Source of the DNA: Terriglobia bacterium
GTDB lineage: Bacteria > Acidobacteriota > Terriglobia > JAJPHL01 > JAPKYU01
Assembly: GCA_965206645.1 (NCBI GenBank)
Contig: CBDBKE010000002.1
Coordinates: 192,001 to 256,000, forward strand
Direction of reading: 5' to 3'
Length of the DNA: 64,000 bases
Positions 47,431 through 51,548 of this stretch are shown here, one piece after another; the stretch's first letter is position 1; each line of letters begins with the position of its first letter. A program made the position numbers and the translations under genes. The notes under the pieces are model-generated. The model had not been told where the DNA came from. It ran no database searches and was given only the letters and a program-made list of their open reading frames with translations.

Positions 47431-48408
47431 CTAGAAATAGATCTTCACGCCGAACTGGATGCGGCGCGGCTGCTCGCCGAGCGGAGAAACACTCGGCAGC
47501 ACAGAGCCGAATCCCTGCCGGCCAAAGGTGGCCTCGCCAAACGTAGAGGATTGCAGGGCCGGGTCGGGATTGTTCAGGTTGGTGTGGTTGAACAGATTGA
47601 AGAACTCGGCGCGAAACTGCAGCCGCCCCTGTTCCCCCAGGGGGGGCAGAGCAAAGCTGCGGCTGAGAGCGAAATCCACGTTCCAAAAGCCGGGGCCGCG
47701 AAACGCGTTGCGTGGCGCGTTTCCGATCGCGCCATCGGTGGGCGCGCGGAACTTGGACTTGTCGAGCAGAACCACTCCGCCCGGAATCTGAGTGGGGTTG
47801 GAAAGAAAGGCTTCGTCGTGGTCCTGGCCCAGGAAATCGGCGCGGTTCACGAGGAGCAGTCCGCCACTTTGGGGAATGAATAATTCCGTACTGAGAACGG
47901 AGAAAGGAAACCCGGAACGGAAGCCGGCCAGGGCGGCCGCCTGCCAGCGGCCGAACACGCGACGCCAGCCGCGGAACTTGGGAGCCTCGGCTACGAAATT
48001 GATCGCCAGGTTGTGCCTCTGGTCGAAATCGGAAAGCCCGTAGTCGGCGCTCAAGTCAAACTGCCGGGTGAAGAAACCGCCCTGAAGTGTAGAGAAGGGG
48101 TCAGACAGGCGTTGAACGCCCGGGCGGCCCCGCGCAATGGCAGCGATCCGCCCCTGGGGATCGCTCTGCACGTCCCTGGTGCGGCTGTAAGTGTAGGAAC
48201 CCTGAAACTGCACCCCTTTGCTCCAGCGGCGGTTCAGCCCCACTTCCAGGGCCACGTAGTCGGAATGGCCCGGCCCGCACGCTGCGGGGATCGCCAGCCA
48301 TAGCTCGTCTTCGGCTCCCTGGGGCCGGGGGGCAAACTGAGCGAAAGCCTCCTCTGGAAATGAGGCAGGGTTCGCAGGGGACACCACATCAGTAGTGACT
48401 AGGCTCAT
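47431..48408 (-). pseudogene. C-terminal fragment of a large TonB-dependent receptor joined to an unrelated short N-terminus
   Basis: Only the last ~280 aa (SYTYS, DFDQRH, RNAFRGPG..NVD, RAEFFNLFNH.N, RRIQFGVKIYF) from ~48270; no plug or signal peptide; RBS and ATG at 48408 lead into ~46 unrelated aa. Confidence 0.75.
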
Positions 48409-48479
48409 AGTAGCTCCTTCAACCAGACCGGCCTCGGAGGCCGGCAGGGTACTCAAGTTCGACATTGGGTTCGCATGGC

Positions 48480-48650
48480 TCATAACGTAAACCTCATTGG
48501 CGTAGATTTCAGTGCCATGGACTTGATCGCGCACCTCACCGGGAGAATCCGCAGAAACTCCGGGAGGGGTCTGCGGGTCTTCTGTGCCGCAACCATCGCG
48601 CAGAACAGCGCCGCCATGGTCTGGGTCCTTTGAGTTCTTGTGCTGTCCAT
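48480..48650 (-). CDS. Small protein, paralog 1 (56 aa)
   Basis: MDSTRTQRTQTMAALFCAMVAAQKTRRPLPEFLRILPVRCAIKSMALKSTPMRFTL*; 32/42 core aa identical to 50523-50699, with 11 synonymous codon differences. Confidence 0.6.
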   Translation of the reverse strand: MDSTRTQRTQTMAALFCAMVAAQKTRRPLPEFLRILPVRCAIKSMALKSTPMRFTL

Positions 48651-48891
48651 AACAGTGCCTAGTTAAACGGAGTCGCAGTAAATGGCCAATAGCCCCACAG
48701 TTACATTTTGCTTGGTACTTTCGGACTAGCAGGCGCGCGCCCAACAGGTGGAAATTAGGGCCGGCTGGTGGAGGGTCTCCACCATGCGAGCAGGGGTACG
48801 CCACCGGGGGATCGGTGGCGCAGCTTCGCCAGGCTCGCGGGTGCCGGCACGGCAAAGAACATGATCGAGATGGGATTGCGTCTTCATGAAG

Positions 48892-50526
48892 TCAGGCCTG
48901 TCCATCCTTGCTCACCCCCTGGGGGGCCTCACTTGCAAGCAAATGTGGCGCGACGGCTTCCATAGCCGCGGCCGCCTCGGCACGGTTGCGTCCTGCACGC
49001 TTGGCCCGGTACAACGCGACATCGGCAGCGCGCAGGAGGGTCTCCATCTCGTCCTCCTCGCTTCCGACGGCCACCCCCAAACTCATGGTGCTGGAGATCT
49101 GGCCCTCCCGGGTGTGCACGGGTTCGTCGCTGAGGCAGGCTCGAATTCTCTCGGCCTGGTTCAGCGTGCTGGTGGCATCGCAATCGGGGAGGACGATCAG
49201 GAACTCTTCTCCCCCGTAGCGGCCGACCGAGTCATAAAGCCGCACGGAGGAAGCCATTCTGCGGCCGGTTTCCCGTAACACCGCATCGCCGGCCAGATGC
49301 CCGTGAGTATCGTTGATAGCCTTGAAATGGTCTAGGTCGGCCAGCACCACCCCTACAGGGATTCCCTCGCGCTTGGCGCGCTCCAGTTCCCCGCCCAGGA
49401 TGTCCAGGATCGCTGCGCGGTTCCAAACCCCGGTGAGAGAATCGTGCGTGGCCTGGAAGCGGTAGCCTTCGCTGACCGCCAGCTGCTTCTGCAGCGTCTC
49501 CATCTGCTGCTTGAGCTCTCCGGTCACCTGACCCAGCGTGGCTTTGGGGGCCGTGAGCTCGCGCAACTCCAGGTTGAGGCGCGCCTCCTCGGCGGCCAGG
49601 TGATCGCGCTGGGCAGCCACACGCTCGTGGCTGGCGTTCACGTCGATAAGCTGCTCGGCGAGGCGGCGTGCCTCTTCCCGCTCGCGTTCCACCTTCCGCT
49701 CCAGGTCAGCAAGGTCGGCCTCTTTCTCGCTGCCAGCGCGGGGCAGGGGCCTCTGGCCAGACAGGTCGGCCATGGCCAGGATGCGGTGGCGCCGGCGCTC
49801 TTCGGGTCCGCCAGCCAGTCCGGAGCGGAAGGCCAGGGCCGCCGGACCCAGGGCGATGGCCACACCCCACCGGCCTCCCCGATCTTCGTCCGCCCGCACC
49901 ACGCAGCCTTCCTGCTCGGCATCCTGTGGGCCGGTGTAGGGAAACGAAACCAGCACCTCGGTGCCGACCCGGTATTGCCGGTTGCTGAGGAAGTAAGCGC
50001 CTTCTTTACTGACGTTGGTGGCCACGGTAATCTCGGGGCCGTCGGTGGCCCATCTCTTCTTGCGCACCCGAATGGCAGCCTTGATCGCAATCCGCCGATG
50101 TCGCCGGGTGTTCTTCGGCTTCTCGGGCGAGCTGGCTGCAGAAGCCGGCTCTCCGACCAACTCCCGCAGCTTCTGGTGCAACTCGCGAGCTCCGAAAGGC
50201 TTCAAAACGTAAGGCAAATGCCTTTGCTCAATGAACTCCCAGGTAGCTTCCGAGGCGATATCGCCCGTCAGGAACACAATCCGGCGCTTGTACTCTGGGA
50301 ATTCCTTTTTCACTTGCTGGTAGAATTCTGCGCCCGACATCCCCGGCATCAACATGTCGCAGAGGATGGCGTTGTAGTCATTTTCGGGCAAGCGGTCCAG
50401 CGCTTCACGGGCCGACTGCGCCACGTCAACAGCCAAGCCCTCACCTTCCAGTATCTTCCGGACGATGCTCAGCATCTGCTCGTCATCGTCAATGACGAGG
50501 ACTTTGGGTTGTTTCGTGCCGCTCAT
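48892..50526 (-). CDS. Response regulator diguanylate cyclase (REC-PilZ-coiled coil-GGDEF)
   Basis: VLVIDDD, CDMLMPGMSG, KPF; RRHRR + NVSKEG; D.LTG..NR, DLDHFK.IND..GH..GD, RLYD I-site, GGEEF. Confidence 0.92.
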   Translation of the reverse strand: MSGTKQPKVLVIDDDEQMLSIVRKILEGEGLAVDVAQSAREALDRLPENDYNAILCDMLMPGMSGAEFYQQVKKEFPEYKRRIVFLTGDIASEATWEFIEQRHLPYVLKPFGARELHQKLRELVGEPASAASSPEKPKNTRRHRRIAIKAAIRVRKKRWATDGPEITVATNVSKEGAYFLSNRQYRVGTEVLVSFPYTGPQDAEQEGCVVRADEDRGGRWGVAIALGPAALAFRSGLAGGPEERRRHRILAMADLSGQRPLPRAGSEKEADLADLERKVEREREEARRLAEQLIDVNASHERVAAQRDHLAAEEARLNLELRELTAPKATLGQVTGELKQQMETLQKQLAVSEGYRFQATHDSLTGVWNRAAILDILGGELERAKREGIPVGVVLADLDHFKAINDTHGHLAGDAVLRETGRRMASSVRLYDSVGRYGGEEFLIVLPDCDATSTLNQAERIRACLSDEPVHTREGQISSTMSLGVAVGSEEDEMETLLRAADVALYRAKRAGRNRAEAAAAMEAVAPHLLASEAPQGVSKDGQA

Positions 50527-50699
50527 GGCTCCAATCCAGCTGATTCAAATACGCCTCGATAGCTCTTCAGTGCCATAGATTTCATCTCCGGACTCAACGG
50601 GAGAATCCGTAAAAACTCCGGCAGACTTCTGCGGCTCTTCCGCGCGGCAACGACCGCACAAAACAGCGCCGCCATGGCTTGGGTCCTTGTTGCCTTCAT
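50523..50699 (-). CDS. Small protein, paralog 2 (58 aa), ATGA-coupled to the diguanylate cyclase
   Basis: MKATRTQAMAALFCAVVAARKSRRSLPEFLRILPLSPEMKSMALKSYRGVFESAGLEP*; stop overlaps ATG 50526. Confidence 0.65.
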   Translation of the reverse strand: MKATRTQAMAALFCAVVAARKSRRSLPEFLRILPLSPEMKSMALKSYRGVFESAGLEP

Positions 50700-50936
50700 A
50701 ACAGTGTCTAGTTAAACGCAGCGACAGCAAGCAGCCAATAGGAGAACAGTTACATTCTTCATAGTACCTTTGGGCCACTGAGCACGCGCCTACCAGGCGG
50801 GTCTCGGCAGGCCGGCGGACGGTTCTCCGGTGAACTGTGAGAGAGCAAAGCTTGTCCTCCGGGACGTCTTGACGGAACACCGGACGGGGAATCCCTCCGG
50901 GGTTGGCACCGCAACGAGAAACAGATTGGCCAGTGG

Positions 50937-51488
50937 TTATTTCAAAGGGAAATGCTTCAGCTTGACGTATCCAGCACCGTGAGGAAAAAGCCGACTCTGA
51001 TAGAGGAACAGTTCCGTTGCCGTGTAGCGGCCGAGATCTTCGGAGCGGTGGACTTCCCATTCCGGCGGCAAGACTGGAACACGGCTGCCTTGCCTCAGCC
51101 GGCCCAGGGTCAGGTGAGGAGAGAATGGACGCTGCTCGGGTTCAATCCCCAGCGGCGCCAGGGCCCGCTCGACCCCGGTGGCGAGTTGACCCAAGGCCGG
51201 CGGCGCCAGCACCCCCACCCAGAAGACACGGGGGTGGCGCTCATTAGGAAAACAGCCCAACCCGCGGAAACCGAGTTCCAGCGGCCCGGGCGCGGGCACG
51301 CCCGCCAGCGCTTCGACCAGGGCTGGCAATCTGTCTTCCGGTTGCTCGCCAATGAACTTGAGCGAGAGGTGCAGCGATTGCGGCTTCACCCACTTCACCT
51401 GGCGGGCCGCTGGCTCCAGTTGGCGCAGCAGGGCAGTAATCCGCGCGCGGACAGCCTCATCCAACTCCAGGGCCACGAAGAGCCGCAT
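50937..51488 (-). CDS. thpR: RNA 2',3'-cyclic phosphodiesterase
   Basis: MRLFVAL, HLSLKFIG and PHLTLGR 2H motifs. Confidence 0.93.
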   Translation of the reverse strand: MRLFVALELDEAVRARITALLRQLEPAARQVKWVKPQSLHLSLKFIGEQPEDRLPALVEALAGVPAPGPLELGFRGLGCFPNERHPRVFWVGVLAPPALGQLATGVERALAPLGIEPEQRPFSPHLTLGRLRQGSRVPVLPPEWEVHRSEDLGRYTATELFLYQSRLFPHGAGYVKLKHFPLK

Positions 51489-51548
51489 TACTTTCTTGGC
51501 TCGGATTGGAAAAGTATCTTCACTGGGACGCGAATGCAACTCACTTCA

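Follow-up and report, generated by a model that had tools for sequence, protein, structure and literature searches.

In a 64,000-nucleotide window of the genome of a soil Terriglobia bacterium (contig C2:192001-256000 of the genome under study, G000; all features relevant here lie on the minus strand), two diverged copies of a DNA segment carrying a small open reading frame (small ORF) flank a diguanylate cyclase gene. These copies and their relatives elsewhere point to a two-part, lineage-restricted expression module, composed of a reused promoter-like cassette and a small gene in the first-cistron position, which, together with the mechanism proposed for it below, we give about an even chance of being correct. 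The parts of this reading differ in strength: judged by the pattern of substitutions, the small ORFs are very probably real protein-coding genes, and the cassette is probably a promoter or regulatory region.

Small ORF copy 1 (48480..48650) encodes 56 residues and copy 2 (50523..50699) a basic protein of 58 residues with three predicted helices. A preliminary description of the window had proposed two diverged copies of these lengths, and their translations do align in BLASTP with 32/45 identical residues (E 2e-21); in the 42-residue core, 32 residues are identical and 10 differ, and 11 of the identical residues are specified by different codons, including CTG/TTA and TCT/AGC. What it had said of the DNA ahead of the start codons is equally borne out: this DNA aligns without gaps (71/100 and 74/110 bases identical before the ATG), contains the quoted motifs, and has no Shine-Dalgarno (SD) sequence, GGAG, GAGG, AGGA, AAGG and GGA all being absent from positions -20..-1 of both window copies.

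The coding status of the small ORF was assessed on 15 intact copies from five genomes, over a gap-free core of 40 codons. Codon positions 1 and 2 each have 17/40 variable columns and position 3 has 34/40, and position 3 differs from positions 1 and 2 pooled with a Fisher p of 1.1e-5, a value that is indicative only, since the sequences are related. The Nei-Gojobori ratio of nonsynonymous to synonymous substitution rates (dN/dS) ranges from 0.05 to 0.42 in the claimed frame, and in 14/14 pairs neither of the other sense frames gives so low a value. With four fairly independent pairs pooled, the corresponding ratio of proportions (pN/pS) is 0.38 in the claimed frame, which has stop codons in 0/15 copies, and 1.26-1.45 in the other frames, with the exception of one antisense frame that shares the wobble positions (pN/pS 0.50) and has stops in 4/15 copies. 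Sense frame +2 is also open in 15/15 copies and is unconstrained (pN/pS 1.45); in three of the four G000 copies it extends through the upstream cassette, inflating mechanical ORF lists (e.g., 47431..48855 and 50545..51060). The insertions and deletions seen inside the ORF, 9 nt towards the N-terminus and 15 nt towards the C-terminus, preserve the reading frame, and an N-terminal T-[RK]-T-Q is retained with differing codons ahead of an internal methionine. Because this motif is kept with different codons and the length differences are multiples of three, the ATG that ends the cassette, not the internal methionine, is taken as the start; gene callers often choose the latter (Met9), and other calls miss the small ORF altogether.

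The codon periodicity of the substitutions bears directly on the idea that the conserved element is a structured RNA (a riboswitch or a small RNA) instead of a protein. This idea draws on the conservation of the upstream DNA, on the two occurrences of CCAUGG in the ORF, which could pair, and on the fact that c-di-GMP (cyclic di-GMP) riboswitches occur before GGDEF and PilZ genes; it is nevertheless largely refuted, and we attach hardly any weight to it. A search of Rfam at E <= 10 returned four chance-level matches, none of them on the cassette or on the strand of the ORF, the mir-263 match overlapping copy 1 on the opposite strand. RNAalifold gave -0.22 kcal/mol for 12 upstream regions, with 1/10 predicted pairs covarying; for 12 ORF regions, 0/25 pairs covary and none lies at the junction with the next gene. 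The single-sequence fold is no better than that of shuffles (z = +0.35). The two CCATGG words lie at Met9-Ala and Met42-Ala (48530..48650 and 50570..50690) and may pair with each other; RNAalifold predicts this helix with no covarying pair, and three of the 12 sequences break it.

The small ORF family is itself small and lineage-restricted, with members in two genera plus weak matches in a third. Besides the two window copies, G000 has intact ones at C4:1210591-1210746 and C1:100479-100643, four in all, and a decayed fifth at C4:834232; the other three genomes of the genus give 6, 3 and 5 matches, and the second genus of the same family gives three. In a sample of the class, 6/301 genomes have a match, including one weak match in another family at E 2.9e-5. 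Two weak matches from that other family of the class (G017 C4:691803, L012, E 0.002; G106 C204:2671, L036, E 2.9e-5) share the pattern LFCAxxxA[KR]xS[KR]A-T-L-E-E and precede unrelated small genes with no cassette; they may be distant relatives of the small ORF family. An index of 5.8 billion proteins yielded 35 clusters of 40-67 residues that carry no Pfam domains or names, and the sole name attached to the six clusters looked up is 'hypothetical protein'. An exhaustive hidden Markov model (HMM) search of 1.84 billion representatives returned 17 matches, most of 43-70 residues. The longer ones comprise a read-through (163 residues), an upstream-extended ORF (111 residues), and two proteins of 188 and 845 residues that match only in 4 and 7 short repeated stretches, respectively (the 845-residue case judged from the match pattern alone); therefore, no parent gene or fused form was found among the 1.84 billion representatives. 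The proposal of a conserved small-protein or leader-peptide family thus stands, with homologs in the genus, in a second genus and in metagenomic clusters and with purifying selection in the claimed frame only. The grounds on which it might have fallen turned out otherwise: homologs exist, dN/dS is well below 1, and neither a longer parent gene nor an RNA structure was found in the searches above.

The family consensus reads x-T-Q-A-M-A-A-L-F-C-A-x-V-A-A-[RQ]-K-[ST]-R-R-S-L-P-E-F-L-R-I-L-P-V-S-P-x-x-K-S-M-A-L; beyond it, the tail varies. In an alignment of 36 members, A11, C14, A15, V17, A19, L26, L30, R31 and K40 are invariant, and an AxxxAxxxA helix face is apparent. AlphaFold2 predicts three helices (3-22, 26-32 and 37-51; mean predicted local distance difference test score, 71), and a hand count on the translation gives a net charge of +6. 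As the preliminary description had supposed, no known family could be recognised: (i) Pfam and NCBIfam contain no match to the small protein at E <= 0.1; (ii) a profile search of PDB sequences gave a best E of 0.024 over 15 residues, which is not meaningful; (iii) Foldseek found nothing in the PDB at E <= 0.001, its top rows being histone H2B at E 1.8 (noise); (iv) a wide VIA-align search gave a best Z of 6.4 (Coa6), with three-helix matches of a generic kind that score less than is expected for helical models, and homeodomains at Z 4.4, within noise; and (v) the ESM Atlas had no usable match. With regard to a small DNA-binding protein of the helix-turn-helix or ribbon-helix-helix kind, these profile and fold searches gave matches at noise level. 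Inspection by eye for a twin-arginine translocation signal, a lipobox or a Sec signal peptide at the N-terminus was negative, as the hydrophobic stretch spans about 12 residues and lies before, not after, the RR, being immediately followed by RKSRR. RKSRR was also considered as a PilZ-type RxxxR motif and dismissed, since homologs frequently have Q in place of the first R. When a complex was predicted between the small protein (alignment A3) and the REC-PilZ-GGDEF protein in full length (alignment A5, 77 sequences), two runs that had no controls scored 0.00, which counts as evidence neither way.

The second part of the module lies upstream of the small ORF. Conservation extends over about 135-170 nt in all four G000 copies and is carried by short primary-sequence motifs, which define a cassette of about 135 nt (GCTAG, AAAGGTACC, AATGTAAC, CTATTGGC and TTTAACTAG) that ends in an ATG at a fixed distance. 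In the window, cassette copy 1 occupies 48648..48783 (nhmmer match C2:240783-240648, E 4.4e-37), with AATGTAAC-N7-CTATTGG at 48686..48707, TTTAACTAG at 48659..48667 and the terminal ATG at 48648..48650. Cassette copy 2, identified by an nhmmer match (C2:242826-242697, E 3.5e-32), by the exact motif and from alignments, occupies 50697..50826, with AATGTAAC-N7-CTATTGG at 50735..50756, TTTAACTAG at 50708..50716 and the terminal ATG at 50697..50699. A motif search followed by nhmmer located ten strong cassettes in G000 (E 4.4e-37 to 6.2e-19) and two weak ones. The exact motif AATGTAAC-N6-9-CTATTGG occurs 8 times in G000, 8 in G001, 3 in G002, 7 in G003 and once in G006 (a member of the second genus), the five genomes with the small ORF. 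In the other 36 relatives its count is 0, and reversing the motif as a control gave counts of 0-1.

What stands behind these cassettes differs from copy to copy. In G000, four precede a small ORF. Two precede a membrane-anchored FHA-domain gene that starts at the cassette ATG itself (C4:954884, 311 residues, FHA 1.1e-6, and a truncated paralog at C4:71653). One, on the minus strand, precedes a transmembrane (TM)-GGDEF gene of 341 residues at C4:956067-955042 (L043:3043-4068), to which about the first six small-ORF codons are fused in frame, so that the cyclase begins at the cassette ATG. Another precedes a PilZ-like gene (C1:191349) that has a separate leader and SD sequence; in G000 this gene is shortened to 85 residues and followed by a transposase-like ORF. 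Two cassettes (C4:832943 and C4:76096; L005/L029 and L044) are interrupted by the same IS3-type insertion sequence (IS) element, located in one case in the spacer before the TTTAACTAG box, with a decayed small ORF behind the element, and in the other exactly at the ATG. The region C4:66000-78000 of G000 contains several IS copies and a 5'-truncated TM-GGDEF cyclase of the kind called type B below. Since the fused codons at C4:956067 indicate that the small ORF was cleanly deleted there, this paralog appears, as far as its sequence goes, to be a natural 'small ORF minus' control. Because the cassette also precedes genes that lack the small ORF, the cassette is the constant part of the module; the term 'module' of the preliminary description is apt, with the qualification that this constant part is present in many copies and is not confined to genes with a small ORF.

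A regular expression run over all loci gave 37 rows, of which eight were dropped (six inside the PilZ-like ORF, all of them imperfect matches, and two that had no other part of the cassette), leaving 29 distinct cassette instances. In 23/29, an ATG lies 34-36 nt after CTATTGG, namely in 18/18 instances with an intact or decayed small ORF and five of six FHA copies, in which the TM-FHA gene starts directly at the fixed ATG. The use of this ATG by three unrelated ORFs is the best argument for a promoter with ribosome loading at the ATG. Near-identical upstream DNA ahead of non-homologous genes within one genome is also the pattern by which reused, putatively mobile promoters are recognised. The copied unit can be delimited further: the C1 copy keeps a 16-codon remnant of the 5' end of the REC gene, ending in a stop codon, and the homology of window copy 1 continues about 25 nt beyond ATGA. 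As the first codons of the REC gene were retained at new sites, the copied unit was the cassette and small ORF together with the 5'-terminal part of the original cyclase gene.

Such copying behaviour might suggest that the element is what is left of a longer, decayed gene or that it is one end of a mobile element, and the multi-copy state of the module, the two cassettes with IS insertions and the retained REC 5' remnants agree with this origin. It is an explanation that we consider barely tenable, given that no longer homolog emerged from the 1.84 billion representatives, that the small ORF is under purifying selection, and that the intact copies have no transposase attached. Inverted repeats of at least 12 nt, the mark sought for a miniature inverted-repeat transposable element (MITE) or other IS-derived element, number 0 around either window copy (48300-49000 and 50350-51050).

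The genes that follow the small ORF fall into several types. Type A, a REC-PilZ-GGDEF gene, is joined to it by an ATGA junction in G000, G001, G003 and G006; type B, a TM-GGDEF gene, has an ATGA junction in two copies each of G001 and G003; type C, a REC-like gene plus a CpaE/ParA-type ATPase gene, follows after a 13-nt gap in G000, G001 and G002; and type D, two PilZ genes (one in G001), stands after the REC remnant in G000, G001 and G002. Single cases are a sigma-54 activator with no receiver domain, a cyclic nucleotide monophosphate (cNMP)-binding protein fused in frame, and a STAS protein. Overall, the genes behind the cassette thus encode GGDEF, PilZ, REC plus CpaE/ParA-like, FHA, sigma-54 activator, cNMP-binding and STAS proteins, and the suggested link to c-di-GMP signalling is confirmed in that the downstream genes are GGDEF, PilZ and other signalling genes. 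A Tad pilus gene adjoins one cassette operon. These genes are not paralogous: the PilZ proteins match the cyclase at E 32 and 1.9, and the two GGDEF proteins share only 29% identity over the GGDEF domain. Type D was considered as a type A operon with internal deletions, and this was rejected, as its PilZ proteins cannot be aligned with the cyclase and only the 16-codon REC 5' remnant is shared. Type A cyclase paralogs located after a histidine kinase gene have no cassette. The REC-PilZ-GGDEF architecture is itself widespread in Acidobacteria, with 4337 of the 8000 candidates scored reaching E <= 1e-20, and the small ORF is therefore a lineage-specific addition. Throughout, the small ORF is on the same strand as the next gene, with stop/start overlap or close spacing that is conserved in relatives, an arrangement from which we infer translational coupling to the downstream gene.

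If the frame were kept open only so that ribosomes could pass from the cassette ATG to the downstream start, the peptide itself would be a functionless passenger. The cassette also works with other ORFs placed directly at its ATG, decayed small ORF copies exist (L023, L028, L029 and L050), and a degenerate remnant precedes the cyclase ortholog of G004, all of which would suit a dispensable peptide. The need for an open frame alone, however, explains neither a dN/dS of 0.05-0.42 nor nine invariant residues in 36 sequences, and we regard this explanation as very unlikely. The G004 remnant belongs to a third genus (C313, L057), where a diverged cassette with AAGGTACC, TGTGAC and CTATTGG lies upstream of the REC-PilZ-GGDEF ortholog and is followed by the GC-rich degenerate small ORF; the genome is 72% complete, and this genus has apparently lost the small ORF family.

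The reading that we prefer joins the cassette and the small gene as follows. In G000, the cassette has been copied ahead of about ten non-homologous signalling genes, which would constitute promoter reuse; behind four of the ten, the ATG opens a gene of 52-58 codons that either ends in an ATGA overlap with the signalling gene or stops 13 nt short of its start. Transcription would begin at the ATG or a few bases from it (leaderless type), and ribosomes would load at the cassette ATG, translate the small ORF and reach the downstream gene by termination-reinitiation, with the result that the small protein would be co-produced with each signalling protein. The small protein would then act in trans on the same c-di-GMP/Tad-pilus regulon, where it would feed back on the cassette or serve the signalling proteins as a common accessory factor. 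Concerning the transcript, both window copies have the sequence features of leaderless genes, namely an ATG start and no SD-like word in -20..-1, and we judge a leaderless transcript to be well within reach, a shade under an even prospect. The available expression data are assembled contigs of two metatranscriptomes (13% and 5% of sampled words), which carry no 5' ends, strand or level; contigs identical to the window cover both junctions of the small ORF with the downstream gene (48416-48583 and 50449-50626) at a depth of 2-3, a weak hint, and stretches that are not covered carry no meaning. The step in trans is more tentative, and we would sooner doubt it than assert it; it is favoured by the constraint over the whole core with its Ala-x3-Ala-x3-Ala face, by the predicted fold and by the net charge of +6.

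Several observations weigh against the favoured reading. On the promoter side, a sigma-70 scan returned 0 sites in 48300..51100, and the best hand-picked hexamers (TTGGCY-N17-TTAACT) have no A at position 2 of the -10 element (-11). It is possible that the promoter is served by another sigma factor. Manual comparison of motif spacings, in which no tool supported any of the readings, led us to set aside sigma-54 (GG-N9 rather than N10-GC) as well as sigma-28 and extracytoplasmic function (ECF) factors (TAAA-N17 in place of N15-GCCAATAG, read on the opposite strand; a distance of 30 nt from GTAAC to CGTT). With regard to the leaderless start, positions -12 to -158 ahead of the copy 1 ATG are represented in an RNA-library contig whose 11 mismatches mark it as coming from a paralog or a different strain; if it is sense RNA, it speaks against such a start, DNA carry-over being an equally good explanation. 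Three cassettes before a PilZ gene have lost the fixed ATG; the start codon used there lies 58 nt beyond the motif and is preceded by a separate GGAGG-type site, so that the cassette can also function with a leader. On the protein side, no fold, family or motif indicating DNA binding or c-di-GMP binding was found in the small protein, and the downstream proteins have no single domain in common, which sits poorly with a specific partner in trans. Finally, the small ORF was cleanly deleted in the C4:956067 paralog with retention of the downstream gene, and the 4-6 near-identical paralogs are each conserved in orthologous positions in several species (dN/dS 0.11 and 0.26 for G000 versus G003 orthologs). 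This independent conservation of each paralog speaks against any role in trans, its simplest explanation being that every copy matters in cis.

The last point leads to an alternative in which the small ORF is a cis-acting leader: its nascent peptide would slow or stall the ribosome and thereby set the rate of reinitiation at the ATGA of the signalling gene. The trigger might be a signal, or the targeting of the hydrophobic N-terminal helix to the membrane. Apart from the paralog conservation, this alternative accommodates (i) the invariably co-directional small ORF that overlaps or lies close to the next gene, (ii) the lack of homology among the downstream genes, (iii) the tail beyond the core, which differs in length and sequence among paralog types, as expected if only the junction must fit, (iv) the in-frame ORF deletion at C4:956067, which leaves a working-looking fusion, and (v) the position of the hydrophobic helix, which ends 33-39 residues before the stop, by comparison about the length of the ribosome exit tunnel. 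We nevertheless hold it to be the less probable course, although one to be taken seriously. The whole 40-residue core is conserved, with AxxxAxxxA periodicity and a moderately confident fold, which is beyond the needs of known arrest motifs; no such motif was recognised; no conserved hairpin covers the downstream start, in keeping with the folding results above; and the ATGA overlaps leave no space for a terminator or antiterminator. A further, improbable scheme would combine elements of both: a self-contained copy-and-paste module made of a leaderless promoter and a peptide sensor (the nascent chain or the finished protein) reading c-di-GMP or surface state. If it were true, the sensor would gate reinitiation on, or feed back on, any gene placed downstream, and cyclases, PilZ receptors, a TadZ-like ATPase and other regulators would be wired into one regulon.

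The remaining features of the locus are best read along the minus strand, where the order is a LigT-like gene, the cassette, small ORF copy 2, the REC-PilZ-GGDEF gene, the cassette, small ORF copy 1 and ORF 47431..48483. The gene directly upstream of cassette copy 2 (50937..51539) encodes a LigT-like 2'-5' RNA ligase/phosphoesterase (LigT_PEase, 9.9e-26), and this neighbour, judged from the aligned flank, is also kept in G001 and G003. The start of the cyclase gene between the two copies (48892..50526) is overlapped by the stop of copy 2 (ATGA); it encodes a response-regulator diguanylate cyclase of 544 residues (Pfam GGDEF 1.5e-44, Response_reg 9.2e-23, PilZ 3e-06). The stop of copy 1 likewise overlaps the ATG of ORF 47431..48483, which confirms the overlap reported for both copies; the gene that follows copy 1 proved to be not an intact gene but a chimera. 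Its first 61 codons (48301..48483), in a comparison of translations, match the N-terminus of the membrane-anchored type B GGDEF gene of G001 and G003, which is intact there after the orthologous small ORF (GGDEF 5.6e-27 in the G003 ortholog). In frame with this remnant, 47431..48300 encodes the C-terminal third of an outer-membrane beta-barrel protein (Pfam OMP_b-brl_4 6.4e-54; about 290 C-terminal residues), residues 62-321 of the ORF corresponding to profile positions 591-829 of 838, and the N-terminal ~590 profile positions are absent. Contigs of one DNA run end at 48300-48329, at the chimera breakpoint near 48300. A deletion or rearrangement appears to have taken away the rest of the type B cyclase, and the chimera is probably a deletion scar and a dead gene.

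Taken together, these results describe a well-supported small protein family that has no functional name in the sources checked, and an unusually clear case of natural promoter reuse, because the reused piece comes with a start codon and, in many cases, with a first cistron as well. They also allow the stepwise recruitment of signalling genes into a regulon to be followed through the REC 5' remnants, one in-frame loss of the small ORF and two IS-hit copies. Control of diguanylate cyclases and PilZ receptors by the small protein, or by the act of translating it, would, if real, add a new layer to c-di-GMP regulation in a phylum, Acidobacteriota, about whose regulation, to our knowledge, almost nothing is known; the reach of the finding is limited by the narrow taxonomic range and by a mechanism that is putative. 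Searches of the full-text literature (supplementary files aside) listed no study that describes a small ORF ahead of acidobacterial diguanylate cyclase genes, nor did they bring up the combination of a start-codon-carrying cassette, a folded-looking first-cistron small protein and coupling to c-di-GMP genes.

Individual elements of this combination do have counterparts in known systems. Among regulatory arrest peptides, MifM (PMC4423224) resembles the small ORF in its N-terminal hydrophobic segment, its conserved downstream peptide and its position just before the regulated gene, and differs in that the small ORF has no known arrest motif and no hairpin sequestering a ribosome-binding site, and in that the regulated genes here are not secretion factors. 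The same comparison holds for SecM. The leaderless short ORFs of mycobacteria (bioRxiv 10.1101/834739) are likewise SD-less first cistrons ahead of operon genes, with a proposed role in control; these short ORFs carry runs of cysteine codons and work by attenuation, whereas the family described here has no codon run, leaves no room for an attenuator, encodes a peptide of 52-58 residues with a conserved fold-like pattern, and has a leaderless start that is inferred rather than mapped. A precedent for a leader peptide acting in trans is peTrpL (PMC7298713). BldB of Streptomyces (PMC10294661) offers another parallel, with many small-protein paralogs that each lie beside a regulatory gene; no sequence or fold relation to it was found, and, unlike there, the neighbours here are not paralogs of each other. 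The stop/start overlap of co-oriented genes is the ATGA arrangement known from translational coupling (PMC12548453), conserved here across genera; in the usual cases it joins subunits or partners of one pathway, whereas here one ORF family is joined to several unrelated signalling genes. A further close comparison is with the putative mobile promoters and promoter reuse described in prokaryotes by Nijveen, Matus-Garcia and van Passel (2012; PMC3575422). In contrast to those cases, the unit reused here, whose promoter activity is putative, has a start codon at a fixed distance, about half of its copies add a small protein gene and the first codons of the original downstream gene, and its copying is apparently confined to two genera of one family. 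It shares with them the highly similar upstream regions before non-homologous genes in a genome and its relatives, the lack of a recognisable mobile element, and the rewiring of genes into common control.

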